Source of the DNA: Chloroflexota bacterium
Lineage (GTDB): Bacteria > Chloroflexota > Anaerolineae > B4-G1 > SLSP01
Length of the DNA: 64,000 nt
NCBI GenBank assembly: GCA_036845725.1
Contig: DAIUDK010000004.1
Location: 519-64,518 of the forward strand
Reading direction: 5' to 3'
A program made the translations under genes and the position numbers. The notes under the pieces are model-generated. The model was not told the origin of the DNA. It saw only the letters and a program-made list of their open reading frames with translations, and did no database searches. Numbering within the stretch: the stretch's first letter is position 1; every line of letters begins with the position of its first letter. Positions 13,912-64,000 of this stretch are shown here, one piece after another.

Positions 13912-13948
13912 CTGTGGGGTAGGTAGGGCAAAGTATCTATTGAACGAC

Positions 13949-13979: not shown

Positions 13980-14018
13980 CCTATCCTGAAAATCCTGTTA
14001 ATTCTGTCCAAATTCTCT

Positions 14019-14340: not shown

Positions 14341-14439
14341 AGTCGGTGTCATTTGTCTGGCGATGGCCCACGTGGAGGATTTGCTGGCACTGTGTGTAAG
14401 TCAGGCGCAGATTTTCGCGGATTCACGCAGATTGTTTTT

Positions 14440-14477
14440 AATAAAGAAGACGCCGGATGGAAATTTCCATCCGGCGT
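14440..14477 (-). terminator. Intrinsic terminator after the AOR gene
   Basis: acgccggatgg-aaattt-ccatccggcgt perfect stem followed on the minus strand by cttctttatt. Confidence 0.7.
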
Positions 14478-14507
14478 TTGTGTGAAACACAAAAGCTGAA
14501 TGTCGGC

Positions 14508-16265: not shown

Positions 16266-16442
16266 AGTAAAACTCCTTTTTTAAGTTTGATTCCTGGATA
16301 TGTCAGCCCTATCCAGGTGCGAGAAACTGCCTGGCTGACTGGGTTATACAATATGTAGTTTTGACACCGGTAGGCGAGGGCGGTAGACCGTCCCGAGCCT
16401 GGTTTGTGACTTTGGCTCATCTTCAGCCCGGCCACTGGCAAC

Positions 16443-27723: not shown

Positions 27724-27736
27724 GGAATGGCGATTG

Positions 27737-30605: not shown

Positions 30606-30680
30606 TTGGTTAACATTTTTCAAACATTAACCAAACGTTTATCATTGAAGTGACTTTATAAAACCCTTTCATGCTATAAT
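30606..30680 (+). promoter_or_regulatory. Promoter and operator region of the signalling operon
   Basis: Extended -10 TGCTATAAT at 30672-30680; TTGGTTAA-N13-TTAACCAA inverted repeat at 30606-30634; three 11-bp-period AAC(A/G)TT direct repeats at 30610-30642. Confidence 0.6.
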
Positions 30681-30708
30681 TAAGCAGTAACCATATACAG
30701 AGGTGGAC

Positions 30709-31086
30709 ATGGGTGCAAAAATTCTATATATTGAAGATAACCCCGGGAATCGTACATTAGTGCAGCGCATTCTTATGGTTGAAGACTATGACGTTTTTGA
30801 GGCTGAGGATGGGCCTACGGGGATCGAGATCGCTCTGCAGGAAAAGCCAGACCTTATTCTTATGGATATGAATCTTCCTGATTTGGATGGGTATGAACTG
30901 ACGCGGCGTATGCGGGCCATTCCCGAGTTGGCGCATATTCCCATCATCGCGATGACGGCCAATGTGATGCAGGGCGACCGTGAAAAGACCTTGGATGCTG
31001 GGTGCAGCGGCTACATTCCTAAGCCCATTGATGTTGACGAGCTTCCAGGTCAAATCGCGCGTTTTCTCAAGATGAAGGGAGTTTAG
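30709..31086 (+). CDS. Single-domain response regulator (DivK/CheY-like)
   Basis: ILYIEDN, LILMDMNLP, IIAMTA, YIPKP. Confidence 0.93.
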   Translation: MGAKILYIEDNPGNRTLVQRILMVEDYDVFEAEDGPTGIEIALQEKPDLILMDMNLPDLDGYELTRRMRAIPELAHIPIIAMTANVMQGDREKTLDAGCSGYIPKPIDVDELPGQIARFLKMKGV

Positions 31087-31115
31087 TCACTAGGCTAAAC
31101 CCTGAGAAATTAGTT

Positions 31116-31535
31116 ATGAAGTGGAAACCAATTCCCCCATCGAATGCCGTCATCCTGATTGTTGAGGATAACCTCAACAATTTTATCTTGATGACCCGAC
31201 TGTTGGCCTTTTTGGGTGTCAAGAAGTGTGAATGGAAGGCTTCGGGGTGGAAGGTGTTAGAGTTTGCCGAGACGTTGGGTAATATTGATTTGATCTTGAT
31301 GGACATTGCTTTACCTGATGCGGACGGTTTTGAATCCTTAGCCTCGTTGCGTTCGCATCCTCGTTTTCAAAATGTGCCGATTGTGGCGGTAACGGCTGAT
31401 ATATCGTTGAAGAATGTGGCCCGGGCGCGTGAAGCCGGGTTTGATGGTTTTATTGGCAAACCCCTGGATCCAGATCGTTTCCCTGAACAGGTCCGGCGGG
31501 TTTTACAGGGTGAGGAGGTATGGGAACGGGAATAG
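31116..31535 (+). CDS. Single-domain response regulator
   Basis: ILIVEDN, LILMDIALP, IVAVTA, FIGKP. Confidence 0.9.
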   Translation: MKWKPIPPSNAVILIVEDNLNNFILMTRLLAFLGVKKCEWKASGWKVLEFAETLGNIDLILMDIALPDADGFESLASLRSHPRFQNVPIVAVTADISLKNVARAREAGFDGFIGKPLDPDRFPEQVRRVLQGEEVWERE

Positions 31536-33949
31536 CGGCGGGTGTCCAGACGCCACGAGAGCCGCGCTCAATTCCAACAACCGGGATGCGCGGGGGATTG
31601 GGGCGAACCCTGCTGACTGCCTTTCTCCTCCTAACGATCCTCCCTTTAGCCCTGATCGGGGGCTATGCTGCGCAGAACAACCGCGACAGCCTGCAAAAGG
31701 AAGTCAAAAGCAAACTGCAGGCGGTGGCCACCCTGAAAGGCGAGGAATTGCGCCAGTGGCTTGCCCGCAACGGCCAGCGATTACAGCTATCTGCTCTTGA
31801 AAAAGAAAATCTCTCTGAAGCCCGGCGCGATGCCTGGTGGGCGGGGATCAGCGAGCAAAACTCCGACTTGCTCGGTGTGGCGTTCGTCGATTCAGCAGGG
31901 CGCGCCCTGTGGATGGTGGGCGAGTGTCGTAACATACCTTTGACGATGGCAGCGCCCAAGCGCGGGCCGACTTCTTCACTCACGGTTTCAGAGAAAGCGG
32001 CAAGTTCTCCTCAGGGACAGTTCGTTCTGTCACGTACAGATTCCAATTTGTGGTTACTGGTGGAGGAAACCGAGTCAAGAACGTTAGTTTTCTGTTTGAG
32101 CGGTGCGGGAATGGCGCGCACGATTCAGTACGATGTCTTGCTTGATGAAGCTTTGATCGGCAAGACCGGGAAAGTTTACTTGATCTTTAACTCATGGCTT
32201 TGGCCGGACGGCGTAGACGCGGTGATGCTCGCCGAAGATAGTGCGCCGCCGCGATTGACTGGGGATGGTGCATACGTGAATTACCTGGGTGTTCCGGTGA
32301 TCGGCGCATATTATCATGTGGCGGACTACGACATCGGCGTGCTCGTCGAACAGGCACAGTCCGAGACTCTGGAATCCACCAACCGCATTGCCGCGACGTT
32401 GATTGCCCTGGTGTTAGCCGTAGCTCTGGCGACGACGATTATCTCGGCGTTCGTCATCCGACAAATCACACGCCCGGTTATCCGCCTCACAGAGTCAGCG
32501 GTGGCGATGGCCGAAGGTGATCTGGCTCAGCATCTCGAAGTCACGTCACGTGACGAAATCGGCATCCTGACCTACGTCTTCAATGATATGGCGGCGGACC
32601 TCAAGTCATTGTACGAGGACCTGGAAGATAAAGTGGCCGAGCGCACCAAGCGATTGCAGCAGGCGAACTACCAGATTCAGCGGCGTGCACTGCACCTGCA
32701 GGCCAGTCAGGATGTTGGACAGGCGATCACGTCGGTCCGCGATCCGGCGTTGCTCCTTAACCGGGTAACGGACTTGATCCGCGAGTGTTTCGTGTACGCT
32801 TCGGTGGCGGTCTATATCGTGGAGCCTGGCGGCGGCGAAATTCGTCTGCGCGCGCTGAGTCCGGCGATGCGCAGCGATACCATCACCGATGTGGGTGATC
32901 AGGGCGGTTGGGGCGAGCGCGTCTATGCCGGCGATGGCTCGATCATTGAACGCGCTGTCCGTAAGCGTAAGCCACAAGTCGATCAACACCAGACGAATGA
33001 GGATGTGGAGTGGTACCGGCGCACGTTGAGCCGGGTGGCAATTCCGTTACGGATGGGCGACCGCATCACCGGTGTGCTGGCGGTCTTGAGTACCGAGCAC
33101 GAGGGCATCCAGGAGGACGAATTGGAAATCCTCGAATTGCTCGCCGGGCAGGTTGCCATTGCGCTGGAGAACGCTAGGGCATACGAACGCGAGCGTTTGG
33201 CGGCGCAGCAGTTGGAAGAGGCGGAGGTCTTCAAGGGGCGTTTTCTGGCGAATATGTCCCACGCGTTGCGCGAACCACTTAACACGATTATTGGTTTTTC
33301 ACGTCTGATGATCAAGGGCATTGATGGGGCAATGACGCCGCAACAGATTCAGGACCTGGAGCGCATCTACGACGACGGGCAGCGGCTTTTGTTCTTGATC
33401 AACGACATCCTCGCCATTTCGCAGATTCAGGCCGGGATGATGGAATTGCGTTTGCAGGAGGTCGCCTTGCCCGAGATCGTCGCCGGGATGATGCCCACCG
33501 CGAGCGCCCTGGTGCGCGGTAAGGAGATCGATTTGGTGCAGGAAATCCCGGAGGACCTGCCGGTATTGAATGCTGATCCGGCGCGATTACGGCACGTGCT
33601 CGTCCATCTCTTTAACAACGCGGCGAAATTTACGGAAAGCGGGCAGATTGCCATCAAAGCCTGGTGTAATGAAGATCAGGTTTACGTCAGCGTGAGTGAT
33701 ACCGGCGTGGGCATTCCGCCGGAGGACTTTGAGCGGTTGTTTATCCGCTTTGAAAAGGGAGTGGCACTAAAGCCGATGGACAAAGAAGGCCGTTGGCAAG
33801 CGGGTATTGGTTTGGGACTTGCGTTGAGCAAGGAGTTTATTGAAATGCATGGTGGTCAAATGTGGGTGACGAGTGAGTTGGGGAAAGGTAGTACGTTTAC
33901 CTTTTCCCTGCCTTGCCATGCTCCAACCTCACCAGCCCTTGAAGGATGA
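31520..33949 (+). CDS. Sensor histidine kinase: TM, extracytoplasmic (Cache-like), TM, HAMP, GAF, HisKA, HATPase
   Basis: GDLAQHLEVTSRDEIGIL HAMP; ANMSHALREPLN H-box; NNAAKFT, DTGVGI, GLGLALS boxes; RBS GAGGAGG. Confidence 0.93.
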   Translation: MGTGIAAGVQTPREPRSIPTTGMRGGLGRTLLTAFLLLTILPLALIGGYAAQNNRDSLQKEVKSKLQAVATLKGEELRQWLARNGQRLQLSALEKENLSEARRDAWWAGISEQNSDLLGVAFVDSAGRALWMVGECRNIPLTMAAPKRGPTSSLTVSEKAASSPQGQFVLSRTDSNLWLLVEETESRTLVFCLSGAGMARTIQYDVLLDEALIGKTGKVYLIFNSWLWPDGVDAVMLAEDSAPPRLTGDGAYVNYLGVPVIGAYYHVADYDIGVLVEQAQSETLESTNRIAATLIALVLAVALATTIISAFVIRQITRPVIRLTESAVAMAEGDLAQHLEVTSRDEIGILTYVFNDMAADLKSLYEDLEDKVAERTKRLQQANYQIQRRALHLQASQDVGQAITSVRDPALLLNRVTDLIRECFVYASVAVYIVEPGGGEIRLRALSPAMRSDTITDVGDQGGWGERVYAGDGSIIERAVRKRKPQVDQHQTNEDVEWYRRTLSRVAIPLRMGDRITGVLAVLSTEHEGIQEDELEILELLAGQVAIALENARAYERERLAAQQLEEAEVFKGRFLANMSHALREPLNTIIGFSRLMIKGIDGAMTPQQIQDLERIYDDGQRLLFLINDILAISQIQAGMMELRLQEVALPEIVAGMMPTASALVRGKEIDLVQEIPEDLPVLNADPARLRHVLVHLFNNAAKFTESGQIAIKAWCNEDQVYVSVSDTGVGIPPEDFERLFIRFEKGVALKPMDKEGRWQAGIGLGLALSKEFIEMHGGQMWVTSELGKGSTFTFSLPCHAPTSPALEG

Positions 33950-35892
33950 TGTTCGTCGCACGGGAGAAAAGCATGAAGAAAGAGGAGATCTCGAGTCAAG
34001 AGACGGTTGAAATATTGGAGCAGATGATACCGTGGCGACAGAGCCTGTTTGAACGTCTTCTGCGCGTGGTGGCAATTGTCGGTTTGCCGTTGGCGCTGGT
34101 CGGTGTGTACTACGCTCTGGCTGTCGAGCAAACCAGCTACTTGTTTCTGATGCTGATATCCTACTTGCTTATCGTCGCAGCCGCTTTTTTCCCGCGTGTT
34201 CCTTACGTCTGGCGCGTGTGGGGATTGCTCGGGGCGTTGAGCGTTCTGGCGACGGTTGATTTATGGTTCTATGGCTGGGGTGAGGACGGTCGAATTTATC
34301 TAATCACGGCCATTCTTTTTGCCACTCTTTTCCTGGGCGGACGTCATAGCTTGGCTATGTTGATTCTCTCCGTGGCGATTGTTGCCCTGTTTGTCGCATT
34401 GTTTGCTTTGGGTGTGGAGATGCCGCAGCCTTATCTGGCCACGCCCGCTACGTTGATGCCGTTGGTGAGTGGGCTAGTTGTCTTTACCGGGTGTGTGACG
34501 GCCTTGTTTATCTCCTTCAACAATCTTCTTCCGCGTATCTTTGCTAATCTACAGCGCAGCGCGCAGCTCTCCGCCGATTTGGAGGCACGCCAGGAAGAGC
34601 TGGCTGGGCGGATGCGCGTGTTGCAGGACTCCAACCTCGGTTTGCAGCGGCAGGCAATGTACATCGACGCTGGGGTGCAGGCGACGCGCGGCTTGATGCA
34701 ACACTTTGAGGTCGAACCGTTGTTGGAGCGGGCTGTGCAGCTTATCAGCCGGCATTTCGATTTCCCCCACGTCGCGATCTTCCTGCCAGATGAGACCGGC
34801 ACATCGCTTGTGTTGCGCGCGGCCTCTTCATCGGGCGGGCAGAAGCTGGTAGCTCAGGGGTATCGCCTCAAACGATCCGCTCAAAGTGCTCTGGGACGCG
34901 TCCTTGAAACACGGCAGCCCCATATTGCCGGGTTGAACATCGGGATGCTAGATGCCGATTTCGATGTCGCGCACCTGGCACAGCCTGGCTTGCCGCCCGC
35001 GCGTTCGGCAGCGTTGCTGCCGTTGGTCGTCGCGGGTGAGGCTTTGGGCGTCTTGGACATTCACAGCCACGAAGAAGCGCCTTTCGATCAAGATAACCTC
35101 CGGGCACTGGAGTCGGTGGCCTGGCAGGTCGCTGTAGCGCTCGACAACGCGCGGCGCTTGAGCGGCGAGGACTCCGTCCTGGCGATGGCGAATCCGTTTT
35201 TCCGTTTGACGCAGCAGGTGGGGATGGCGCACACTGCAGCGGAGGTGCACACCGCGATTTTGCGGTTTGTCCAGGCATTCTATCCAGGACACGCCTACAT
35301 CGTGGAGGAAACCGAAAGCAAGCGCGAAACCGCGTACCGCGTCACCGACTTGCGCGGGGAGTCGCTGCACGTGCAGCAGATCGCCGAGGACAGCGCCGCA
35401 GAGAACTTCGGCGCGGCCTGGGCGCTGGGGATGGCGCTGGAAACGCCGTTGTTTATCGCCGATGTCAGCGCCCCACCGGATTTGCCGGAAACCGGATGCG
35501 CCGATTTCTGCCGGCGTCTGGTCGAAGACCCGACGTTTGCCGGAGAACATCACAGCGTAGCCCTGATTCCGCTGCGCGCCGGCGAGACATTCTTTGGTTT
35601 GGTGACCATTTTCTACGACGCTGCACACCCCAGCACCCCCTTGGAAATGCAAATCTACCGCGCCATCGAGGATTTCGGCGGTGTGATGTTGGAAAGGATT
35701 GCGTTGCTGGATGAGACGCAGACACGATTGTCGCAGGAGCGCTGGTTGCGCGAGTTTAGCGAGCGCATGCTGCAAACATCGGATCTGGAAATGATGTTGG
35801 CGGAAGCCGCACGGTCGCTCCAGGATGTTGCATACGCTGATGGTGTGACTGCTGCGCTGACTCCGCCGGAAGCGCACACCGGAACCCGTTGA
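33946..35892 (+). CDS. Kinase-less receptor 1: multi-TM, GAF, second degenerate GAF, terminal half-GAF segment
   Basis: About 6 hydrophobic segments; LISRHFDFPHVAIFL...ALGVLDIHS GAF; ends ERWLREFSERMLQTSDLEMMLAEAARSL. Confidence 0.8.
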   Translation: MMFVAREKSMKKEEISSQETVEILEQMIPWRQSLFERLLRVVAIVGLPLALVGVYYALAVEQTSYLFLMLISYLLIVAAAFFPRVPYVWRVWGLLGALSVLATVDLWFYGWGEDGRIYLITAILFATLFLGGRHSLAMLILSVAIVALFVALFALGVEMPQPYLATPATLMPLVSGLVVFTGCVTALFISFNNLLPRIFANLQRSAQLSADLEARQEELAGRMRVLQDSNLGLQRQAMYIDAGVQATRGLMQHFEVEPLLERAVQLISRHFDFPHVAIFLPDETGTSLVLRAASSSGGQKLVAQGYRLKRSAQSALGRVLETRQPHIAGLNIGMLDADFDVAHLAQPGLPPARSAALLPLVVAGEALGVLDIHSHEEAPFDQDNLRALESVAWQVAVALDNARRLSGEDSVLAMANPFFRLTQQVGMAHTAAEVHTAILRFVQAFYPGHAYIVEETESKRETAYRVTDLRGESLHVQQIAEDSAAENFGAAWALGMALETPLFIADVSAPPDLPETGCADFCRRLVEDPTFAGEHHSVALIPLRAGETFFGLVTIFYDAAHPSTPLEMQIYRAIEDFGGVMLERIALLDETQTRLSQERWLREFSERMLQTSDLEMMLAEAARSLQDVAYADGVTAALTPPEAHTGTR

Positions 35893-35895
35893 GCA

Positions 35896-37620
35896 ATGGA
35901 TGGAAAAGCTATGAGTGAAAGACAAGAACGCATATATCCTGTAGAAGTCCGCCAATGGCAACGGCAGTTGCTTAACCAGGTCTTGCGGATCGTGTTTGTT
36001 ATCACTGTCCCGCTGTTGTTGATTGCGTCTTACTACGTGTGGAGAGATGGGCATGCCTGGCTCATTCCTTTCTATGGGGTCGGATTCCTGCTCGTGGTCG
36101 TTGTACGGTTCTGGAAGAAAGCCCCGTACACCTTGCAAACCGGCGTATTATTGACGATTGTCTACGGCCTGGCGGTGCTTGCGCTGTTGCGGGCCGGGTT
36201 GAGTAGCAATGCGTCGCTCTTCCTGCTGGGGTTCGCCTTCATGGCGACAATTTTCCTGGAACGACGCGCAGCACTGATCAGTATCGCTGTGGTGGTTATC
36301 ACTATGGGGATTGCCGGTTGGCTGTTCTCTGCCGGAGTCTTGACCATCCCTGACGATATTCAGTTGTTATCGGACAAACCGGCCGCCTGGCTCAGTTACA
36401 CGTTTACACTCTTGTTGGCCAGCACATTCTTTGTGGCCTCACAACTTTTCTTGTTTCCGCGCCTTGCCGAGGCGTTAGCCAAAAGCCAGGAGATGGCACG
36501 CGAAATTGCCGAGGATCGCGAGCAGGTGGTACGGGAGGCGGAAACCAAACATCATCGCGCGGAGCAGTTAGGCTGGGTTGCTAATCTGGGCAACGTGCTG
36601 GCTTCGTTGCGCCAGCGTGACGATTTGATTTGGCGGGTTGTACGCGAAATCGCACAGACCTTCGATGTCTATCAAACCAATTTGTTCCTGATGAATCGCT
36701 CTGGTGATGCGCTGCTGTTAGCGGCAACTGCCGGGCAACTCGGCGAGGACATATCCCGCTTAGGAACGGCGGCGGTGACCGACATCCCTGTCGGGGCGCG
36801 AATTGCACCGGGACGGGCGGCGCAGTTGGGGAAAGAGCAGATGGCGCTTCTGTCTGACTCAACGGCGTTGTCTGGACAACTGCCCCAGTTTCCTGATAGT
36901 AACGTGGAGATCAGTCTGCCATTGAGCGTGCTCGGCGAAATCTTGGGTGTGCTCGATATCCACAGCACACATACTGCTTTCTCTGATGACGAACTGCATA
37001 TTTTTCGCATCATCGCCAGCCAGGTGACGACCGCTCTCGATATGCTGCGTTCGTTGGAGGAGACGCGGGCGCAAATGCAAGAAATCCGCGCGCTGTATGC
37101 TCAACACACGTTGGCTTCCTGGCGCACCTTGCTGGAAGCGGCTCCTGTGCAATCCATTATGGGCACACAAATGGTCGGTCCGAAGGTACAGGCGCTGGCG
37201 CAGGAGACAATGCGGAAAAAGCAGCCACGTTCGACCTGGCTCGATGCTGAGGGTGTTTATCTGTTGACTGTGCCTCTGGTGTCGCACGATGTCGCAGTGG
37301 GATACCTGGCTTTTACGCGTGCCGCCGAAAAAGGCGATTGGGATGCCGTGACCCGCAATCTGATTGCGATGGCGGCGGAACGGCTGGCCGTGACGTTGGA
37401 CAACACCCGCCTGCTTATCGAGGCACGGCGGCAGGCGCTCTATGACGAGCAGCTTGGCCGGCTCGACGATCTGATTTGGCAGACGCCGAATCCCGAGGCC
37501 ATTATGGAGCGGAGTGTGCGGGAGTTGGGGCGCTTCCTGGGCGCGCATGAGGTACAGTTGTATTTGACCCCGTCTGCCGAGCAGGGCGAGAGCACGATCG
37601 AACGTGCGGGAGATGTCTGA
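35896..37620 (+). CDS. Kinase-less receptor 2: multi-TM, GAF, C-terminal module
   Basis: Membrane domain paralogous to those of 33946 and 62398; EILGVLDIHS GAF; ends NPEAIMERSVRELGRFLGAHEVQLYL. Confidence 0.8.
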   Translation: MDGKAMSERQERIYPVEVRQWQRQLLNQVLRIVFVITVPLLLIASYYVWRDGHAWLIPFYGVGFLLVVVVRFWKKAPYTLQTGVLLTIVYGLAVLALLRAGLSSNASLFLLGFAFMATIFLERRAALISIAVVVITMGIAGWLFSAGVLTIPDDIQLLSDKPAAWLSYTFTLLLASTFFVASQLFLFPRLAEALAKSQEMAREIAEDREQVVREAETKHHRAEQLGWVANLGNVLASLRQRDDLIWRVVREIAQTFDVYQTNLFLMNRSGDALLLAATAGQLGEDISRLGTAAVTDIPVGARIAPGRAAQLGKEQMALLSDSTALSGQLPQFPDSNVEISLPLSVLGEILGVLDIHSTHTAFSDDELHIFRIIASQVTTALDMLRSLEETRAQMQEIRALYAQHTLASWRTLLEAAPVQSIMGTQMVGPKVQALAQETMRKKQPRSTWLDAEGVYLLTVPLVSHDVAVGYLAFTRAAEKGDWDAVTRNLIAMAAERLAVTLDNTRLLIEARRQALYDEQLGRLDDLIWQTPNPEAIMERSVRELGRFLGAHEVQLYLTPSAEQGESTIERAGDV

Positions 37621-37660
37621 TTGATGGGGGCTTTCTCTTGAGTGGAGAGGGGCATTGCCG

Positions 37661-40246: not shown

Positions 40247-40261
40247 CGTGGAGATATCATT

Positions 40262-42352: not shown

Positions 42353-42360
42353 GAGCAACT

Positions 42361-45300: not shown

Positions 45301-45603
45301 CGGTTTGATGAACCACAGGTTCCTGCAGAAGCCGTTGAACTGGTGGAACAGGTCGCAGCCCGTCTGGGGGCAGCATTGGAAAGCGCCCGCCTGTTGGAGG
45401 AATCGCGCCGTACCGCTACCCGTGAGCAGATTGCGGCCCAGGCCATCAGCGGGATGCGCGAGCGTCTGGACGTCGAGGCGGTGCTGCGGAACGCTGCGCG
45501 GGAACTGCGTGATGCGCTCGATCTGGCGCGGGTGTCGGTACGTCTCGCGCCGCGTTTCGAATCCGCCGATAAGCCGGGGAACGGCGACGCGCCCGTTGTG
45601 TAA
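42361..45603 (+). CDS. Kinase-less receptor 5: LacI-type domain, degenerate GAF, module, GAF, module
   Basis: RPTIGLL, AANDDMA, VRRSCGC; ERFDLYYAGIFL GAF; ends LDVEAVLRNAARELRDALDLARVSVRL. Confidence 0.87.
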   Translation: MGRQKRTREISSPDTARETDARPEAKRRPTIGLLVGETNSWWGQSLLQGVTDAAEMFDVDLICYVISSLREKDVPRGNAIYALVNADLLDGAIISGNIAYAVRPDTFSDYVDSLRTTIPLIGVVMAHEGVPSVLVDGYSGMYDNIKHLIEVHGCRRLAFIRGPVGNFDADERYRAYTTLLEEYGIPYSPDFVEVSNFSAGRTAMETLWARIQAVPRDAEDTSPWAVIAANDDMAVQAMTLLREYDVRVPEDIIVVGFDDSVAAQNLDVPLTTVRQPTQEIGQRAMQMVLQLLRGEPVEEIAEVPAELVVRRSCGCLPGAVTQIPVEAQIELIDKPLPAFPGVPAPMWEAFLAGVRGSSADNFLILLDQALREARNTEGRITNWHHLLTEMRRHTLTYLGDLTARHRAEDLLQQARLLVGDAERRQEAYRRQLIQQQETLLGQIDNTLSTILHLQELALALNGLFPRIGIDCCFVSLYENEDPLAENARLLFEYDIYRPGDSPKVELHTESPWFSPPQLIPRQTLFEERRRTVLVLPLTLQTHQLGFAVVWGGQYWRLYTRLTQRLSDVIFRALLALEQERAQREAQAAERRAEEALRDVLVAQRRYIQGAWQERAGLVPGFEYSDEKRGISDTVWIPEMGVAVQRGDVVLEHDLDGGQTMAVPVMLYGEEIVGALAFKTTDAMPWTEDHVTLVRTIATEMALALETQRLFSDVQRRASRLLAAAEISRVTTSILTLDELLPQAVDLIRERFDLYYAGIFLADDSQRWAILRAGTGEAGRVMLARNHRLEVGGSSMIGMCVSQGEAHITFDTRHEALYRRNPLLPDTRSELALPLFSRGRVIGAMTIQDTRPGAFTQEDITTLQTMADQLANAIENARLLRRMEQGMHELELATGQLTQESWRNFLENYRQSFGYRYRLVDVEPVTDPSPEAQVALQQQKTVATTVRLSPTVEVDEETGRVQGVLSVPIRVRNEVLGVLNLRFDEPQVPAEAVELVEQVAARLGAALESARLLEESRRTATREQIAAQAISGMRERLDVEAVLRNAARELRDALDLARVSVRLAPRFESADKPGNGDAPVV

Positions 45604-45683
45604 TGGCAGGAGAAGTTCGTAGGGTGAAGTATGAGGCGCAATGGATACGTTCGGCTCGTTGAGAATCGTTCGAAGGACAGAAA

Positions 45684-56800: not shown

Positions 56801-58101
56801 TGGCGTCGGGAGAAAGTGTCATCGACAAGGAAGAGGCGGCAGTTGATCAAACTACAGGCGAAAAGTTGTGGGTATCCACCACGAAGATTCCTCTGCGCGA
56901 TGAGGCTGGACATATCACCGGTTTTGTGGGGATGACCTACGATATTACAGATCGCAAGCGTACAGAAGTCGTACTGCGGCGGCGCGGCCGGCAACTCCAG
57001 GCGGTTGCCGATGTGGCACGGATCGCGACTGAGGTGTTGGATATTGACACCTTGCTTCAGCAGAGCGTAGAGCTGTTGCTTGAACAACTGGAATTGTATT
57101 ACGCAGGTCTGTTCCTGGTGGATATGACAGCCACCCCGGCCGAGTTTTCCAGTGCGGTGCAGCGGAAGCAGGCCGTGCTCCGCGCTGCAACGGGGCGGGC
57201 CGGTGCGGAAATGGTTGCGCGCCGGCATCGCCTGGAGGTCGGCGGCAGCTCGATTATTGGGCAGTGCATCGCGCAGGGGGAAGCGCGCATCGCGTTGGAT
57301 GTGGGCGTTGCCCCTGTGCGCTTCGAGAATCCGCTGTTGCCGGAGACGCGCTCAGAGCTGGCGCTGCCGCTTAAGAGTCGCAGTGGGGTCATCGGCGCGT
57401 TGACGCTCCAAAGCAGGGAATCCGCTGCATTTTCTCAGGAAGATGTCACGGTTCTTCAAGCGTTGGCCGATCAGTTAGCCAATGCCATCGAGAACATCCG
57501 TTTGTTTGAACAAACCCAGCGCGCCTTGCGTGACTTGGAGATGATCCAGCAGCAATATGTACGCGAGGCATGGAGTGGGCAGAAGGCATCGACGGTGCTC
57601 ACCGATTACGAGATGACACTCCCCGGTATAACGCCTTTACGCGATGCGCGTGGCATATGGGCTTCGTTGCCTGAAGTCCAGGAGGCGTTGACCCGGCAGA
57701 GCACCGTGGTTGTATCGGGGCGTGACGCGCGGGATGTGGATCACGCAGCTCTGGTTGCACCGATCCAATTGCGTGACCAGGTCATCGGCACATTGGGCAT
57801 CCACGATGAGGATCGAGCGCGGAAATGGACCGACGATGAGATCGCGCTGGTTGAAACGGTCGCCGAGCGCATGGGTATCGTCGCCGAAACGTTGCGCTTA
57901 CTCGAAGAGACCCAACACCGCGCCGCGCGCGAACGTCTGACGCGTGAGATCACCGATCAGATCCGCGGGGCGCTCACCGTCGATGAGGCGATACAACGTG
58001 CGTTGCAGCAATTAGGCCAGACGTTGGAGGCCGACATGCTGGCGCGTATCGATGTCGGACAGGGGAAGATTTCCGCTGCACCGGAAGGGAAGGAAAAATG
58101 A
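53848..58101 (+). CDS. Kinase-less receptor 9: LacI-type domain, degenerate GAF, GAF, PAS, PAS, GAF, C-terminal module
   Basis: VRQSCGC; two PAS domains ending ISRDITERK and MTYDITDRK; two copies of the conserved GAF. Start at ATG 53848. Confidence 0.88.
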   Translation: MAKQSRRAGGSSSRKKTAGAPASTQRRLTLGFFVDRLTTGYHNAIWQGVEAQARVRDVNLLCFVGGSLHNQPHSDDMNNVLYGLPDKALLDGLIFAAGSLGTRVNQEKLQAFCERYRPLPMASIAMPLTDISSVLIDNDYGMREMMLHLVDVHGYRRIAFFHRQEGHLENDARYEAYVAVLAERGIAVDPDLVISGTHYSTPETGIRLLFDERQLRPRIDVEALVAHDDRVALEILGILQARGIRVPDDVAVVGFDDIEDSRYAIPTLTTARQPLREQGRQAVELVLAQLQGATVPPQVNLRTQLVVRQSCGCLDATVLQAESRLQPEMPAEPCASFPAAMATRREALLSDMVGVLAAESLSDDANAAIRARVVRLVDAFVEATQDETVASAEVFLRVLDDLMRQTLLEQGDVSAWQNGLSVLRAHALTCVMEGTSAQRIEGLLQQARVQVGSAAQQAQARQRLQTAQREGVLREIDQVFVSAGMLDDLLNAMLYGLPQLDIPSFYLSMYAGLEASQETPTPSTLAQLVLAFDRTRGLEQKSKQRYPMRDVLPPEVLPGDRRYSLVIELLHFRNEHLGKVCFEVGPREGAIYDMLRMQISSALQGVLTTERLAGRALQLQTAAEVSRTASALLDTDDLVQQVVTLVRDRFSLYYVGLFLVEPDPQDPAVQWAVLKAGSGEAGKRMVEEGHRLQVGGTSMIGWCVANREARIALDVDRDTVRRPHLLLPDTRSELALPLISRGDVVGALTIQSTQEAAFSPEDISILQTLADQLANAITNARLYEALEYEQYLMNVLMDNFPDQIYFKDRESRFIRVSRSQTERFGLSDPADAIGKTDFDFFTEEHARPAYEDEQRIIRTGEPLLNLEERETWEDRPDTWVTTTKMPMRDHKGNIFGTFGISRDITERKNTEIQLSADRNLLRTLIDNLPNYVYIKDRQSRFLINNIAHLGLLGARTQEEVIGKSDLDIFPHELASQYYADEQALMASGESVIDKEEAAVDQTTGEKLWVSTTKIPLRDEAGHITGFVGMTYDITDRKRTEVVLRRRGRQLQAVADVARIATEVLDIDTLLQQSVELLLEQLELYYAGLFLVDMTATPAEFSSAVQRKQAVLRAATGRAGAEMVARRHRLEVGGSSIIGQCIAQGEARIALDVGVAPVRFENPLLPETRSELALPLKSRSGVIGALTLQSRESAAFSQEDVTVLQALADQLANAIENIRLFEQTQRALRDLEMIQQQYVREAWSGQKASTVLTDYEMTLPGITPLRDARGIWASLPEVQEALTRQSTVVVSGRDARDVDHAALVAPIQLRDQVIGTLGIHDEDRARKWTDDEIALVETVAERMGIVAETLRLLEETQHRAARERLTREITDQIRGALTVDEAIQRALQQLGQTLEADMLARIDVGQGKISAAPEGKEK

Positions 58102-59453
58102 TGAACAGGCAATCGTCACCGGTTGAGATAGATCAAGTCTTTGCCCGGCGTCTGCAGGTAGCGCGAGTCATCATGTGGGTTTCGGTGGCAGCAACAGCCT
58201 TGCCCCTGGTTGTTTTAGCAATCAGGCTGATCAGAGCGCCATATTCTGCAGATACTTATATCCTGTTGGCGATGGTTTTGTTGTTCCTGTTTCTTAGTAG
58301 CATCGGGCTAAGGTTGATCCGTCGCCAACAACTGTATCGCGCCATTATGGTTTACCTACCCGGGTTGGTCATGAGTCTGACAGTCATCCTCTATTTTCTT
58401 GGGGGTGTCACTGGACCAGTGACATTGGGATTTATCGTCGGGGGGGTGATTGTTGGATTGATTGGGGGAGTCAAACCCTTGCGTTACGCCTCGATCCTCA
58501 TGAGCGTTGTCTATTTGACGATGGCGGCTCTGGAGATTACCCAGATACTGCCCCCGCAGCCCATAGCCGATACCATGCGTTGGCCACTTGAAGTCTTTCT
58601 CTTCCTAAATGCACTGGGCGTGACAGCCGTGGTGTCAGGGGGATTCATTCTCCAGACCGAGCGGTCGATTGATGCAGAGCGGCAGCGTAGCTTTGAACTG
58701 GTCGAGGCCAGTCGTCAGGCCGAGCAGTTAGCGATAGCCGAGCGTGAATTACGTGAACGAGAAGCGTACTCAGCGGTGCATCTTCGTGAAACCGTGGCCG
58801 GATACGCGGATTATTTGTCTCGTGTGGCGGCCGGGGATTATACGGCGCGTTTGGATGTCGGCGTGTTGGAAGAGAATGTCGAAGGGGACAGCGAATTGCA
58901 CGCCCTGGGCGAGTACCTCAACACGACGGTGGATGCGCTGGTGGCGGCGCTGACTCAGTCTCAGGAAGTGCAGCGCCGCTATGCGGAGCAGAGCTGGCAA
59001 ACCGTCGTGCAGTCAGGCCGTGTGCAGCCGGGATTCGCCTACCGGCAAAATCAGATCACGCCGGAGGCGGAGTGGCTGCCGCAAATGACGCGAGCTGTGG
59101 ACAGTGGAGCACCAGTGGCCGAGGGTGAAGGCGCTGCTGTCCCGCTGGTCATTAACCGGCAGATCGTCGGCGCGATTGGTGGGCAGCATCCCGATGGCCG
59201 GCCCTGGACTGAGGAGGAACTATCCTTGATCGAGGCCATCACCGGGCAACTCGCGCAGACCATCGAGAGCTTGCGGCTGCTGGACGATGTGCAGCGGCGG
59301 GCGGTGCAAGAGCGATTGGTTGGCGAGGTCACCTCGCGAATGCGCGAGTCGCTCGATATGGAGACTGTGCTCAAGACGGCGGCTAAAGAAATGCGACACT
59401 CGCTTGGATTGGACAAAATCACCATCTATCTGGGAATGTCCTCAGAAGAGTGA
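58098..59453 (+). CDS. Kinase-less receptor 10: multi-TM, HAMP-like, C-terminal module (no canonical GAF)
   Basis: About 6 hydrophobic segments; VAAGDYTARL...LHALGEYLN HAMP-like; ends LDMETVLKTAAKEMRHSLGLDKITIYL. Confidence 0.8.
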   Translation: MMNRQSSPVEIDQVFARRLQVARVIMWVSVAATALPLVVLAIRLIRAPYSADTYILLAMVLLFLFLSSIGLRLIRRQQLYRAIMVYLPGLVMSLTVILYFLGGVTGPVTLGFIVGGVIVGLIGGVKPLRYASILMSVVYLTMAALEITQILPPQPIADTMRWPLEVFLFLNALGVTAVVSGGFILQTERSIDAERQRSFELVEASRQAEQLAIAERELREREAYSAVHLRETVAGYADYLSRVAAGDYTARLDVGVLEENVEGDSELHALGEYLNTTVDALVAALTQSQEVQRRYAEQSWQTVVQSGRVQPGFAYRQNQITPEAEWLPQMTRAVDSGAPVAEGEGAAVPLVINRQIVGAIGGQHPDGRPWTEEELSLIEAITGQLAQTIESLRLLDDVQRRAVQERLVGEVTSRMRESLDMETVLKTAAKEMRHSLGLDKITIYLGMSSEE

Positions 59454-59537
59454 TGGTGTGTGCGCAAATGTTCGCGCGTCTGTGAATAATCGCGCGTTCG
59501 CAATGTGGCGAAAAGGATTATAGGGAGAACGAATACT

Positions 59538-62381
59538 ATGGCAGAATCTCAACCAGCTGGACGTCCGCAGCGTAATAGGGCAGCCGATGGTCGTCTGACT
59601 ATTGGATACCTTGCGCCGGCTCTCCATGAAGACAGCCAACCACAATGGCTGGGTGTGGTAGATGCCGCCCAGGAACAGGACGTGAATTTGATTTGCTTTC
59701 CCGGCGCTACGCTGCGCACCTCACCCCGTTCCCCGGAGCAGGCTAATATCCTCTACGATTTGGTCGGTGCAACCAGTGTGGATGGTTTGGTGAGTTGGGC
59801 TTCTTCCATCGGCAACTCTGTGACTGCCGACGAGATTGAGGTCTTCCACAGACGTTATCATCCTCTTCCGGTGGTGGCGATTGGGCGAGCGTGGGAAGGA
59901 CTCCCGGGTTTGTCGATGGAGAGCTATCACGGCATGTATGAAGCGGTGACACACCTGATCGAGGTTCACAACTGTCGCCGGCTGGCGTTCATTCGCGGTC
60001 CAGAGAACCACGTACAGGCCCAGTCGCGCTATCAGGCCTATCTGGACGCGCTAAAGGCCCACAACCTGCCTGTCGATCCGCTCCTTATCACTCCACCATC
60101 AGAAAACTGGGCGCGTAGTTGGGGCCCAAAAGCGATATACCTCTTGCTTGATGAGCGCCAGTTGCATCCTCCGACTGACCTGGATGCAATCGTGGCTGCT
60201 AACGACGGCCTACTCCTGGGGGCGCTGCCTAGCCTGCACGCGCGGGGCATTGAGGTTCCCGACGACCTGGCTGTGGTCGGATTCGACGATTCGCTGCACA
60301 GTCGCGTCAACACCCCGTCATTAACGACCGTTGCCGCGCCCTATTACGCCCTGGGCCATCAGGCTGTAGAGGCAGTGTTGGCCTTGTTGGAAGGGCGGGA
60401 AGTTCCCCCGGAAACTTTGATGTCGGCCCAGATGGTTCTCCGCCAGTCGTGTGGTTGCCTGGATCCGGTGGTCGCGCAGGCTAAACTGGAATTAGGCGAA
60501 TCGGAAGATGCGACGCTGCTGTCCATTCTCAGTTCCCGCCGGGCTGGGATTGTCGCAGCCTTGGAGCAGGCCCTGAACAATACCAATGAGGCCGTTCGGG
60601 GTAGCATAGAACGGCTTTTGAACACTCTTGAGGGTGAGTTGACCGGCGAGACGCCGGGGCTTTTTATCCCCGAGCTGAACAGAGCCTTGCGTCAAACTGT
60701 GATGGCTGGCGAGGATGTAGCGGTTTGGCAGGGTGTGATATCGGCATTGCGGCATCAAATGCGTATGTGTGCGCACGAGCAGGCGTTCTTAGTGGCCGAC
60801 GACCTTTGCCAACAGGCGCGCATCGTCATTGGCGAGGCGTCACAACGCACACAGGCATACCGGCATGTGCAAATGGAGCAACGGGCGCTTGCCCTGCGTG
60901 AGATTGGTACGGAATTGCTCAATACCTTCAATGTTCAAGGTTTGATGGATGCATTAGCCCGGTCATTGCCCGATTTGAACATTCCGAGCTGCTATCTATC
61001 CTTGTATGAAGCCGCGCAACCATATCAATATCCTCAGTCTCCGCCCGAATGGGCCAGATTAGTGCTTGCCTACAATGAAAAGGGCTCTATCACTCTAGAT
61101 GCAGAGGGATATCGTTTTCCTGCGCGTCAACTGATGCCCGTTGAGATGTGGCCGTCGGGACGGCGTTACAGCTTTGTTGTCCAACCGCTCTTTTTTCAGA
61201 ACAGCCAGATCGGATTGGTATTGTTCGAGATGGGGCCGCGCGAAGCCGATGTCTACGACACCTTGCGTTTACAGATCAGCAGCGCGTTACAGGGAGCAAT
61301 GCTAATTGGCCGTGTGGAGAAGCGCGCGTTGCAGTTTCAGGCAATCACTCAGGTTTCACAGACCACCAGCAGTATCCTGGACCTCGATGCGTTGACTCAA
61401 CGGGTTGTAGACGTGATACAAGAGCGGTTCGATTTGTACTACGTTGGCCTGTTCTTGACCGACCAGACCGGTGAGGAGACGGATGTGTCGAGTCGCTGGG
61501 CTGTGCTGCGGGCTGGTACAGGTGAGGCCGGGCGTGAAATGATCGAGCGCGGACACCGGCTGGAGATTGGCGACACTTCTATGGTTGGTTGGGCCGTAGC
61601 TCACAAACAGGCTCGTATCGTACTGGACGTAGGACAGACAGGGGAGGTCGCGCGATTCGATAACCCGCTCTTACCAGACACGCGTTCAGAGATGGCGTTG
61701 CCACTCATCAGCCGTGGTACAGTTATCGGTGCGCTAGATGTGCAAAGTGTTCGTCCCGAAGCGTTTGGTGATGAAGACGTCGCTATTCTGCAAACTATGG
61801 CCGACCAGGTTGCGTTGGCAATTGGCAATGCATTGCTGTTCCAGCAAGTTCAGGATAGCCTGGAAGCGGAGCGCCGGGCATATGGCGAGTTAAGTCATGA
61901 AGCGTGGCGAACATTGCTGCAGACAGGATCGGGCATGAGTTATGTCTGTGACGAATATGGCCTCTCGCCGGCGGAGGCGCCCCCCGAGCCGCATATGTAC
62001 AAGGCCGTGCAGACAGGGACCTCTGTCATTGCTGCCGATGATGAGCAGGCTGTGGCTTTGCCGATCAAAGTGCGCGATCAGGTTATCGGCGTTATCAATG
62101 TTCATAAGCCACAAGAGGGACCATGGTCGAGAGAGCAAATCACACTTGTGGAGACCCTGACGGAACAACTGGGCGTGGCCCTGGAAAGCGCCCGGCTGTA
62201 TCAGGACACGCAACGCCGCGCGGCGCAAGAACAATTGATTGGACAGGTGACCGCGCGCGTGCGCGAATCGCTCGATGTCACCACGGTGCTGAAAACAGCT
62301 GCGCAGGAGATCGCTCGCTCGTTTGGGCTGGCGGCGCTCGATGTGCGGTTGACGCCACCGTCGTCAACGGAACAGTCGTGA
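59538..62381 (+). CDS. Kinase-less receptor 11: LacI-type domain, degenerate GAF, GAF, C-terminal module
   Basis: AANDGLL, LRQSCGC; ERFDLYYVGLFL GAF; ends LDVTTVLKTAAQEIARSFGLAALDVRL. Start at ATG 59538. Confidence 0.87.
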   Translation: MAESQPAGRPQRNRAADGRLTIGYLAPALHEDSQPQWLGVVDAAQEQDVNLICFPGATLRTSPRSPEQANILYDLVGATSVDGLVSWASSIGNSVTADEIEVFHRRYHPLPVVAIGRAWEGLPGLSMESYHGMYEAVTHLIEVHNCRRLAFIRGPENHVQAQSRYQAYLDALKAHNLPVDPLLITPPSENWARSWGPKAIYLLLDERQLHPPTDLDAIVAANDGLLLGALPSLHARGIEVPDDLAVVGFDDSLHSRVNTPSLTTVAAPYYALGHQAVEAVLALLEGREVPPETLMSAQMVLRQSCGCLDPVVAQAKLELGESEDATLLSILSSRRAGIVAALEQALNNTNEAVRGSIERLLNTLEGELTGETPGLFIPELNRALRQTVMAGEDVAVWQGVISALRHQMRMCAHEQAFLVADDLCQQARIVIGEASQRTQAYRHVQMEQRALALREIGTELLNTFNVQGLMDALARSLPDLNIPSCYLSLYEAAQPYQYPQSPPEWARLVLAYNEKGSITLDAEGYRFPARQLMPVEMWPSGRRYSFVVQPLFFQNSQIGLVLFEMGPREADVYDTLRLQISSALQGAMLIGRVEKRALQFQAITQVSQTTSSILDLDALTQRVVDVIQERFDLYYVGLFLTDQTGEETDVSSRWAVLRAGTGEAGREMIERGHRLEIGDTSMVGWAVAHKQARIVLDVGQTGEVARFDNPLLPDTRSEMALPLISRGTVIGALDVQSVRPEAFGDEDVAILQTMADQVALAIGNALLFQQVQDSLEAERRAYGELSHEAWRTLLQTGSGMSYVCDEYGLSPAEAPPEPHMYKAVQTGTSVIAADDEQAVALPIKVRDQVIGVINVHKPQEGPWSREQITLVETLTEQLGVALESARLYQDTQRRAAQEQLIGQVTARVRESLDVTTVLKTAAQEIARSFGLAALDVRLTPPSSTEQS

Positions 62382-62397
62382 CGGGTGTGGATAGGAG

Positions 62398-64000
62398 ATG
62401 ACTATGGAGCAAGAGCACATAACACAATCCAATAGACCGCCATCTTCCGGTAGACCGTCATCTTCCGGACAGAACACTGCCTCGGCAGCGCTGAGTGATA
62501 GTCTGGCGCTTTGGCGGAACGACCTTACCAAGACGGCGCTACGCGCCACTCTGGTAGTTGGACTGTTTGCCGTTTTGATGGGGAGTTATACAGCTTATCG
62601 GGTGGGCAATCTTATTGCGATCCCTCTCTACGTGGTTTTCTATTTGCTGGCGCTGGCTTTTACTTTTTGGCGCGGTATACCTTACGTACTACAAACCTGG
62701 CTGATCATTGGCTTGTTCTATGTTATCGGTGTCTTCGAGACGTTGAACACGGGGCGTACCGGCGATGGCCGTATTCTATTGCTGGCTTTTGCACTGATCG
62801 CTGCGTTGTTCTATGGACGCCGCGCCGGCTTGGTGGCGATTGGGTTAAATGTGTTGACGTTGTTTGCCTTTGGGATGGCATTTTCCAATGGCTGGCTGCG
62901 TGTCTTTTCGCTGGAGCGCCAGGCTGTTTCCATTGACTTTTTCCCGTGGGTTAGCAATGCCGGAGTCCAAACGATGGTGGGGGTTCTGTTGATTCTGGGC
63001 TATGATTTTTTGCTTACGCGGTTTTCTCAGAATATTGCGAACGGACAGGGGTTGATCGGCGAATTGCAGATGCAGACCCAGTTGTTGAAGTCTCGGGAAT
63101 TCGAATTGGCGCAGCGTAACATGCAGTTGCAAGCCGCGGCGCAAATTGCGCGCGAGACCACCGCCATCAGTAATGAAGAGCTACTGTTAACCAGGTCTGC
63201 GGACTTGATTGTAGAACGGTTTGGTTATGCCTACGTTGGTTTATACGTTCTAGGCTCGAACGGGGAGCACTCTAACATTGAACGCGCGACTTTGAGAGCT
63301 GTTGCTGGTGATCCGCAGTTACAGGTAACCGGGGAAGAGATGTTCAGTGAGGCGTCACTGGTGGGGCGTGCAATTCGTCAAATGACTGTGCAAACAGACA
63401 ATTCAGAGGATGCGGACGTGGTTTTGGCTGGGGAACGGGGGGCCGCAGCGCAATCCGACTTGTACGCGGGGATCGCTCTGCCCATGGTGATCCAAAGCCA
63501 TGTCATTGGGGCTTTGGAGGCACGTGTGGCCGGGCGACGGGCGTTTTCGGCAGATGAAATTGAGGCCTTGCAGACGTTAGTGGATCAGATTGCTGTTGCC
63601 CTTAGCAATGCGCGTCTGCTTACGCAGGTTCAGGCAAATCTGGATGCAGTGCGACAGACCGTGGGAGAAACCAGTAGTCGCGCCTGGCAGGAGTTTTTGA
63701 TCGCCCAGACTGGATTGGCTGAACGGTATGATCCTGACCGACTATTGCCTCCCGTTGACCAATGGCTGCCGGAACTCGACCTGGCGATACAAAAGAGGAC
63801 GCCACTTATCAACCAGGATGAGACTTCGGCACAACTGGTGGTTCCTATTCAGGTACGCGGGCAGGCTATTGGGGCAATTGATGCTCGCAAACTGACAGGA
63901 GGGGAGTGGACCTCGACGGAGATTGAAACCATGCAGACCCTGGTGGATCAGTTGGGTGTGGCTTTGGAAAGCGCCCGGCTGTATCAGGACACGCAACGTC
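62398..64000 (+). CDS. Kinase-less receptor 12 (3'-truncated by the window edge; absent from the ORF track): multi-TM, GAF, C-terminal module
   Basis: Manual translation from ATG 62398 (RBS AGGAG): MTMEQEHIT...WRNDLTKTALR...GIPYVLQTW...GDGRILLL...ERFGYAYVGLY...AWQEFL...VVPIQVRGQAIG...LGVALESARLYQDTQR; no stop seen in the translated stretches. Confidence 0.85.
   Translation, partial: MTMEQEHITQSNRPPSSGRPSSSGQNTASAALSDSLALWRNDLTKTALRATLVVGLFAVLMGSYTAYRVGNLIAIPLYVVFYLLALAFTFWRGIPYVLQTWLIIGLFYVIGVFETLNTGRTGDGRILLLAFALIAALFYGRRAGLVAIGLNVLTLFAFGMAFSNGWLRVFSLERQAVSIDFFPWVSNAGVQTMVGVLLILGYDFLLTRFSQNIANGQGLIGELQMQTQLLKSREFELAQRNMQLQAAAQIARETTAISNEELLLTRSADLIVERFGYAYVGLYVLGSNGEHSNIERATLRAVAGDPQLQVTGEEMFSEASLVGRAIRQMTVQTDNSEDADVVLAGERGAAAQSDLYAGIALPMVIQSHVIGALEARVAGRRAFSADEIEALQTLVDQIAVALSNARLLTQVQANLDAVRQTVGETSSRAWQEFLIAQTGLAERYDPDRLLPPVDQWLPELDLAIQKRTPLINQDETSAQLVVPIQVRGQAIGAIDARKLTGGEWTSTEIETMQTLVDQLGVALESARLYQDTQR

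Follow-up and report, generated by a model that had tools for sequence, protein, structure and literature searches.

What do twelve consecutive sensor proteins report to when none of them carries a recognizable output domain? This question is raised by a 64,000-nucleotide stretch of DNA from a Chloroflexota bacterium (contig DAIUDK010000004.1), referred to here as the window. From position 30703 to its end at 64000 the window is occupied by 15 plus-strand genes (g01-g15) that overlap or abut in the open reading frame (ORF) listing. By Pfam, the first three encode two single-domain receivers (REC) and a HAMP-GAF histidine kinase, and the remaining 12 (g04-g15) encode sensor proteins. We conclude that a very long sensory array begins here, tens of kilobases in extent and transcribed in one direction throughout, of which the region holds the head and the 12 leading receptor genes. 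All of its domains are familiar (GAF, HAMP, Cache, PAS, REC, HisKA), but the system-level design is not.

An earlier reading of this DNA from sequence alone (the sequence-only reading) had described 15 co-oriented genes with overlapping or nearly abutting ends, and the ORF listing agrees. The ATGA overlaps at junctions 33946, 50934 and 58098 are real, at the other junctions neighbouring genes overlap by 8-17 nt or lie 3-34 nt apart, and the widest gaps measure 80 nt (g08/g09) and 51-84 nt (g13/g14). The same reading saw no obvious internal terminator, and terminator-like hairpins were indeed as frequent as in shuffled sequence, all of them within coding regions and 0 in the intergenic gaps. 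Promoter-like matches were observed upstream of g01 and in the gap before g09, with the promoter scan giving the same result as shuffles. The array extends past position 64000 in the identical Joint Genome Institute (JGI) contigs L001 and L002, which reach 5.4 kb beyond the window and carry, in order, the receptor genes g16 and g17, an ABC_sub_bind gene and a dCache-HAMP-GAF receptor gene. The window locus occurs identically on 6 independent JGI metagenome contigs, and g13, the smallest receptor gene, is encoded identically on at least 6 JGI contigs.

The head of the array is an ordinary two-component set, and Pfam bears out the earlier assignment of REC, REC and a complete histidine kinase to the first three genes (Table 1). 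The H, N and G boxes are present in g03, and HisKA and HATPase_c were found in this gene only. The HAMP-GAF portion of g03 is paralogous to that of the receptors (27-33% identity). For g04-g15, with Pfam matches counted at E<0.01, we obtained 0 matches to HisKA, HATPase, GGDEF, EAL, SpoIIE, cyclase, helix-turn-helix (HTH) or MCPsignal (PF00015) families, so that the earlier claim of output-less receptors survives. No STAS domain was matched by Pfam in the array proteins of the window, and NCBIfam yielded no receptor-specific family, its sub-threshold matches falling in the GAF region only. The input domains first proposed were recovered in large part, namely the three inputs with six transmembrane (TM) segments (MASE11 by Pfam), five LacI-type domains, the PAS-PAS pair of g12 and the dCache-HAMP arrangement of g09 and g11, but not the Cache domain of g06 or the HAMP domain of g13. 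The LacI-type domains (g07, g08, g10, g12, g14) match only Peripla_BP_1/3/4. Pfam did not find the N-terminal HTH of LacI in these five proteins, and the NCBIfam matches of g07 begin at about residues 67-124, within repressor cores.

What these inputs have in common is a C-terminal cassette consisting, in order, of GAF-A, a long helix, a small GAF-B, a second long helix, a stub of ~50 residues and ~14 further residues before the stop codon. The ALESARLYQDTQRRAARE helix is part of this cassette, as is the stub, which corresponds to the first helix and first strand of a further GAF domain. Aligning the last ~200 residues revealed a helix ending in ExW, a GY.Y strand, a P-rich loop and the segment LAvPIkVRgQVIGVl, continued by W..EE..L.E.L.EQLGvALESARLYQDTQRRAARE.L.gEvT.RmREtLD.etVL.TA..El..ALGL..v.VRL and a short tail. 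The strongest conserved block is ALESARLYQDTQRRAARERLxGEVTxRMRETLD..VL.TA..EL..ALGL..V.VRL. The sequence-only reading had proposed a shared GAF stalk and C-terminal module. This applies to most receptors; g13 is without a full GAF-A, g07 without a canonical GAF by Pfam, and g04 is diverged. The middle domain of the LacI-type receptors aligned with GAF-A weakly but from end to end, and in g07 this domain (hhalign E 5.5e-4) is followed by a stub that scored 24.5 bits with the stub hidden Markov model (HMM). The further idea that the module is a conserved, novel signalling tip was not upheld: it is made of the small GAF-B and a truncated third GAF, and GAF-A, at 35-55% identity among the window paralogues (g03's own GAF is more distant), is conserved at least as well.

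An AlphaFold 2 (AF2) model of g14 residues 600-958 (predicted local distance difference test, pLDDT, 87) displayed GAF-A, a 52-residue helix, GAF-B, a 46-residue helix, a short helix and a loose end. The best Foldseek matches to this model were the tandem GAFs of the phosphodiesterases (PDEs) PDE5A and PDE2A, CyaB2 and phytochrome GAF-PHY regions (E 1e-9 to 1e-11), and as modelled the cassette, with its tandem GAFs and long helices, is built like a dimeric regulatory module. Pfam and NCBIfam detected neither a catalytic nor a DNA-binding output in it, also not in the C-termini, where the earlier reading had considered that a catalytic domain might yet be hidden.

The stub was characterized with an HMM of the last ~50 residues, which matched the C-termini of the family as well as the linker, first helix and first strand of ordinary GAF-A domains, while a profile search of the PDB matched the N-termini of cyanobacteriochrome GAF domains. 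Together these matches indicate that the receptor chain breaks off shortly after a further GAF has begun. In 95% of 393 complete genes the stub lies at the C-terminus, and the median number of residues beyond it is 14. We also considered whether the stub is a decayed dimerization and histidine phosphotransfer (DHp) domain or H-box, which would make the receptors pseudo-kinases. This was rejected, as the stub HMM finds GAF starts and never HisKA. The PDB profile search agrees, and in kinases fused to the cassette in cis the register to the H-box differs.

One fragment (P0001) continues in cis beyond the stub, with a hairpin and then a helix. The AF2 model gives helix, strand, hairpin and helix in succession, the order that a single small unit would show, with pLDDT 73-88 but an overall predicted template modelling (pTM) score of only 0.36. 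If stub, hairpin and helix form one small unit, the stubs of the window are formally half a unit, and each might be completed in trans by the beta-hairpin and helix of another receptor or of a poly-GAF kinase, allowing receptors to dock or chain. The conservation of the stub and its terminal position would suit such an arrangement, as would P0001 itself. We nevertheless judge it very unlikely, since no array protein was found that begins with the complementary half and since the stub may instead pack on its own GAF-B (pLDDT ~80 in the g14 AF2 model).

To describe how far the module extends beyond this organism, its profile was searched against 1.84 billion cluster representatives (clusters at 50% identity), giving 94,738 matches at E<=1e-3. 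At E<=1e-30 there were 11,730, which puts the receptor family at no fewer than about 11,700 clusters. Giant output-less poly-GAF proteins head the list; P0121-P0135 have 2,000-3,950 residues and 10-21 module-profile matches each, and the two largest scanned (P0123, P0127) contain 10-12 Pfam GAF domains with no detectable output. A scan of one genome per GTDB species produced 146 confirmed sites, from which 67 loci in 58 assemblies were kept and labelled with purpose-built HMMs; the alignment used for the scan (A2) biases these loci towards the ESARLYQDT subfamily. All 67 belong to Chloroflexota metagenome-assembled genomes (Anaerolineae, Anaerolineales, Thermoflexales/Thermoflexia, Thermoflexus). 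Every one of the 67 is an array, with a total of 407 module genes that are all co-oriented, a density of 8-10 module genes per 20 kb and almost nothing on the opposite strand. Such arrays are characteristic of Anaerolineae and Thermoflexia, and the system was also found in a closed 5.35-Mb genome (CP070811.1, L080).

Comparison with close relatives showed that the individual receptors are maintained. Orthologue pairs between the window and either L075 or L008 (both of which contain g12 orthologues) gave ratios of nonsynonymous to synonymous substitution (dN/dS) of 0.07-0.37 in every domain, typically 0.1-0.2; for the receptor proteins the values were 0.1-0.25. Paralogues of the window share only 16-40% identity in the module, against 62-86% overall for orthologues, which indicates that the paralogues are old and individually maintained. 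Receptor gene content nevertheless turns over quickly between close relatives, as L075 lacks equivalents of g14-g16 within a frame in which g11-g13 and g17-g19 are kept in order. The L075 gene that is 84% identical to the N-terminal fragment of the dCache-HAMP-GAF receptor is succeeded by five more complete receptor genes and then by a PAS-containing gene that runs off the end of the locus. Proteins that lack outputs and end in a truncated domain could be taken for decayed relics (functionless truncated kinases) or for a mis-assembled repeat, and relaxed selection had been named beforehand as a result that would refute the sequence-only reading. The low dN/dS values are those of purifying selection, other genomes retain both individual orthologues (62-86% amino-acid identity) and synteny, the locus recurs on the independent JGI contigs, and the system is present in a closed genome. 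Relaxed selection and artefact are thus excluded, and we give the relic or mis-assembly explanation almost no credence.

The neighbourhood of the receptors is conserved at the start of the array, where receivers stand with or without a kinase. The REC-REC-kinase head recurs in L052 and L064, the head receivers have orthologues in L080, and a kinase is located at the start of L014 and L021. Orthologues of g01 were 75% (L064), 66% (L052) and 64% (L080) identical and those of g02 were 76%, 59% and 59% identical in the same loci, while identity to the opposite receiver was only 35-41%, compared with 59-76% to the specific orthologue. The kinase g03 is 56% identical over 802 aa to the head kinase of L064, and its kinase core is 46% identical to that of the tail hybrid kinase in L080.

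Partners encoded beyond the window had been anticipated by the sequence-only reading, and in relatives we found three: a ParA-like ATPase, a poly-GAF hybrid kinase and a receiver-fused threonine-synthase-like enzyme (ThrC-REC). The last two form a tail observed in 7 genomes (L033, L068, L070, L080, L082, L083, L084), with the hybrid kinase first and ThrC-REC second. The hybrid kinase carries GAF-A and 1-3 GAF-B units in cis with HisKA-HATPase-REC(-REC), and in L082-L084 GAF domains are its sole input. The ThrC-REC gene overlaps or abuts the hybrid kinase gene and encodes ~560-590 residues comprising a Zn-ribbon, a threonine-synthase-like PALP domain (2e-57) with the pyridoxal 5'-phosphate (PLP)-lysine motif SSFKDRQ, and a C-terminal receiver. 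Its best PDB relatives are threonine synthases, and its match to PRK08197 (246 bits) is split in two and falls below the cutoff of 303. More than 120 clusters matched ThrC-REC at an identity of at least 61%, with PALP and Response_reg in all among the matches listed. ThrC-REC was the last gene after the poly-GAF hybrid kinase in every context examined, and the content downstream of it differs between genomes, indicating that the array ends there. L080 holds the whole system within 16 kb (3 receivers, 4 receptors, ParA, hybrid kinase and ThrC-REC).

Our preferred reading, which we hold as quite possible but tentative, is that the receptors, having no kinase domain, serve as accessory sensors and influence the array kinases by contact, with output to the receivers and the receiver-gated PLP enzyme. 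The many-to-one, contact-based signalling proposed in the sequence-only reading would fit this anatomy. Each receptor would bind its own ligand, in the periplasm through a partner binding protein or a Cache domain and in the cytoplasm through LacI-type domains that may recognize sugars. The resulting conformational change would travel down the GAF/coiled-coil stalk to the conserved C-terminal cassette, which would contact the head kinase g03, the tail hybrid kinase or both and modulate autophosphorylation. Phosphoryl groups would then pass to the two single-domain receivers and, in relatives, also to the receiver-gated PLP enzyme. In favour of this reading, the same cassette is fused in cis to the kinase core in the tail kinases, and the co-location and translational coupling of the receptors with kinases and receivers are conserved. 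Sensor proteins that control a kinase by direct contact have precedents in RetS-GacS (PMC8498467) and LadS (PMC4866733).

Several points weigh against this proposal. The head kinase g03 has a sensor domain of its own and neither GAF-B nor stub, and no histidine phosphotransfer (Hpt) protein was seen. The tail (ParA, hybrid kinase, ThrC-REC) was observed in relatives, and for the window's organism it is presumed from the orthology of the head receivers. Lineage-specific co-variation of the stub gave no signal either way, with identity within genomes equal to that between genomes for all four regions. Finally, GAF-A is as conserved as the C-terminal module, and the cassette could therefore bind a common small ligand instead of a protein.

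This last point leads to a different explanation, in which the receptors are independent sensors whose cassette binds or buffers a common second messenger, e.g. a cyclic nucleotide, and the two-component system of kinases and receivers works separately and is co-located by chance. GAF domains are classic cyclic-nucleotide binders, the nearest folds are the tandem GAFs of PDEs, the 35-55% identity of GAF-A would fit a shared ligand, and a gene for a REC-GAF-adenylate/guanylate cyclase lies 11 kb upstream of the array. However, different genomes preserve the synteny with kinases and receivers, down to start codons that overlap stop codons, the cassette is fused in cis to kinase cores, and a sensor that only bound the messenger would have no obvious route for its own input. 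We consider this explanation quite improbable.

Genes other than those of the module were also observed inside the arrays of relatives. Clustering and Pfam identified solute-binding proteins (SBPs) of 5 families (NMT1, ABC_sub_bind, Peripla_BP_6, SBP_bac_5 and PBP_like_2), whose genes are unaccompanied by permease or ATPase genes. A large extracytoplasmic domain was present in 40 of the 40 receptors encoded directly after an SBP gene versus 108 of the 308 others (Fisher p = 4e-17), which points to binding-protein/receptor pairs. A highly conserved ParA-like ATPase gene lies inside the arrays of 7 GTDB loci and of L080 (the loci with this gene include L014, L016, L028, L031, L066, L068 and L080). 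It has a deviant Walker A motif, KGGxxK[ST], in L014 and 6 others, matches AAA_31/CbiA, and scores 94 bits against ParA_partition (cutoff 180). The product of the next gene always starts with M(S)DxxLxxxLxxLFSxI, then an acidic stretch, mostly followed by a short hydrophobic region (none was detected in L068). This motif could be a ParA-interaction peptide. No ParA gene was found in the window or in the 39 kb of this organism's readable array. Pairs of a VTT/DedA-type membrane protein and an S-adenosylmethionine (SAM) methyltransferase (Methyltransf_11/25) recur in arrays (L010, L035, L044), and Uma2-type and PD-(D/E)XK/DUF3782 nuclease genes inside arrays (L033, L052) are probably selfish insertions.

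ParA-type ATPases position chemoreceptor clusters (PpfA/ParC), and the ParA-like gene thus bears on a second possibility, the strong form of the sequence-only reading, that receptors co-assemble through the shared cassette into mixed clusters which the ParA-like ATPase positions and a sensor-poor hybrid kinase reads cooperatively, as in arrays of methyl-accepting chemotaxis proteins (MCPs) and CheA. Many inputs do converge on one conserved cassette, the ParA-like gene is embedded in the arrays and is followed by a gene with a conserved N-terminal motif, and the tail kinases of L082-L084 take only GAF domains as input. Homology to MCP, CheW or CheA is lacking, however; the 39 kb of readable array in this organism hold no ParA gene, and the ParA-adjacent proteins are themselves membrane-anchored. 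We regard co-assembly as unlikely. A Che-independent array in its full form, with dozens of receptors, some of them SBP-fed, co-assembled, ParA-positioned and jointly controlling a poly-GAF hybrid kinase that gates receivers and ThrC-REC, is likewise an improbable though not negligible outcome.

The comparison with chemoreceptors had been made from the outset, and it holds as an analogy of logic and not of family. As in chemosensory arrays (MCP/CheW/CheA/CheY), varied membrane and cytoplasmic inputs lead to one conserved signalling end and are encoded with a kinase and single-domain receivers, and relatives add a ParA-type ATPase. Unlike those arrays, there is no MCP hairpin, CheA, CheW, CheR or CheB, the stalk is a tandem GAF, the kinases are of HisKA type, and the end gene in relatives is a receiver-fused PLP enzyme and not a motor-binding CheY pathway. 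CheA and CheW were not found in the window, in the Pfam lists of L001, L080 and L082-L084, or among recurrent neighbours, and in place of CheR and CheB, which were not found, we saw only generic SAM methyltransferases (Methyltransf_11/25 in L010, Methyltransf_19 in L082). Among the partner genes that the sequence-only reading had suggested as co-occurring, the histidine kinase and REC genes recurred in the arrays, while roadblock/MglB, small GTPase and CheW genes are absent from the recurrent array genes.

Other systems resemble this one in part. RetS and LadS, acting on GacS, are also extra sensors that influence one kinase by contact (as we suggest here), but they are hybrid kinases, few and scattered, whereas the present sensors are kinase-less, number dozens and stand in one array (PMC8498467, PMC4866733). 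The tandem-GAF modules of PDE2/5/6, CyaB cyclases and phytochrome or cyanobacteriochrome GAF-PHY proteins share the fold and the connectivity, two joined GAFs and then long helices. They are always fused to a catalytic or MCP output, whereas the receptors described here break off once the first helix and strand of the next GAF are in place. In the stressosome (RsbR paralogues/RsbS/RsbT), the paralogues vary in their sensor ends, have a C-terminal domain in common and are believed to assemble together to control a kinase. The paralogues described here likewise combine variable sensor ends with a conserved C-terminus, but without STAS or an RsbT-type kinase, and most are membrane proteins. SBP-dependent sensors such as LuxP-LuxQ and TorT-TorS are comparable in that transporter-less binding-protein genes lie directly upstream of receptors with large extracytoplasmic domains (40/40). 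They differ in that the partner here is a kinase-less GAF receptor and 5 binding-protein families occur within one array.

A literature search of incomplete coverage turned up no description of the arrays, the receptor family or the ThrC-REC fusions, which is absence of evidence only, and in databases the products go by no names other than 'GAF domain-containing protein', 'ParA family protein' and 'threonine synthase'. We regard the system as two-component signalling to which an exceptionally large number of accessory receptors without kinase domains has been added, with a real chance that it is a receptor-array system of a new kind. If the receptors do act by contact, the arrays would offer a tractable Che-independent model for integrating many inputs into one phosphorylation output, and would account for much of what is annotated as 'GAF domain-containing protein' in Anaerolineae, a group that abounds in digesters, sediments and wastewater. 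If the co-assembled array exists in its full form, it would be a second, independently evolved form of many-to-one sensory integration in bacteria. A threonine-synthase-like enzyme gated by a receiver would tie sensing directly to amino-acid metabolism, which is unusual.

Table 1. Positions of array genes, of selected genes in related loci and of further features. Positions are those of the window unless a locus is named.
Feature	Position	Strand	Description
g01	30703-31086	+	Single-domain REC; Pfam Response_reg 7e-28; D/D/T/K residues canonical
g02	31116-31535	+	Second single-domain REC (Pfam); 35% identity to g01; D/D/T/K residues visible
g03	31520-33949	+	TM, ~250-aa outside domain, TM, HAMP, GAF, HisKA, HATPase_c (Pfam, TM prediction)
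g04	33946-35892	+	MASE11 (6TM), GAF-A, diverged GAF-B and stub; module HMM 41 bits, stub HMM 23.6 bits
g05	35896-37620	+	MASE11, GAF-A, C-terminal module; module HMM 202 bits
g06	37655-40246	+	~8 TM with outside loop, HAMP, GAF-A, module; Cache not detectable
g07	40262-42352	+	Cytoplasmic LacI-type domain without HTH, GGPPAGMA repeat, weakly GAF-like middle domain, diverged stub
g07 linker repeat	41217-41307		24-nt tandem repeat, 3.8 copies, encoding GGPPAGMA x4 between LacI-type and middle domains
g08	42361-45603	+	LacI-type domain, middle domain, extra GAF-B-like unit, GAF-A, module
g09	45684-48062	+	TM, dCache_1, TM, HAMP, GAF-A, module
g10	48055-50937	+	LacI-type domain, middle domain, GAF-A, module; start from 960-aa JGI call, longest ORF from 48010
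g11	50934-53864	+	7TM, dCache_1, TM, HAMP, GAF-A, module
g12	53848-58101	+	LacI-type domain, GAF-A, PAS, PAS, GAF-A, module; longest ORF from 53767
g13	58098-59453	+	Smallest member: 6-7 TM, helical linker, module; without GAF-A, without HAMP match
g14	59505 (JGI start 59538)-62381	+	LacI-type domain, middle domain, GAF-A, module
Module example in g14	61824-62378	+	Small GAF-B, 46-residue helix, stub at ~62199-62351
g15	62404 to beyond 64000	+	MASE11, GAF-A, module; window ends ~50 residues before stop
Two sigma-70-like promoter matches	30495-30522, 30617-30645	+	In the 165-nt gap upstream of g01; consensus matches only
ParA-like ATPase, L014	12844-13602		Next gene 13595-15451
ThrC-REC, L080	14489-16240		
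ThrC-REC, L082, L083, L084	from 10001		
ThrC-REC, L033	16864-17799		
ThrC-REC, L068	19533-20300		
VTT/DedA and methyltransferase pair, L010	4370-5592		
Nuclease gene, L033	12139-12753		
Nuclease gene, L052	3553-4572		
987-aa ORF	27575-30538	+	165 nt before g01
Cyclase gene	18051-19589	-	Response regulator: REC, partial GAF, adenylate/guanylate cyclase
Riboswitch RF01055	16466-16601	-	Moco/tungsten cofactor; Rfam 43.5 bits
Aldehyde:ferredoxin oxidoreductase gene	14508-16265	-	AFOR_N and AFOR_C
633-aa ORF	14457-16358	+	Probably spurious
Surface-protein genes	63-10108	+	1471-aa PKD/FG-GAP protein, then two paralogous ~870-890-aa proteins

The genes upstream of position 30703 are unrelated to the array and include PKD/FG-GAP surface proteins, a GH3, RecJ, histidine ammonia-lyase, epimerases and a TPR protein. 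The product of the 987-aa ORF that ends just before g01 was assigned to no Pfam or NCBIfam family and gave a faint YfhO-like match only. The GAF domains might receive a cyclic nucleotide from the cyclase-containing response regulator, whose gene lies on the minus strand, 11 kb upstream of the array. The molybdenum cofactor (Moco)/tungsten-cofactor riboswitch scored above the Rfam gathering score, and the aldehyde:ferredoxin oxidoreductase gene lies directly downstream of it. At the start of the window, the two paralogous proteins that follow the 1471-aa PKD/FG-GAP protein each have a C-terminal HYDIN/ASH-type Ig-like domain.

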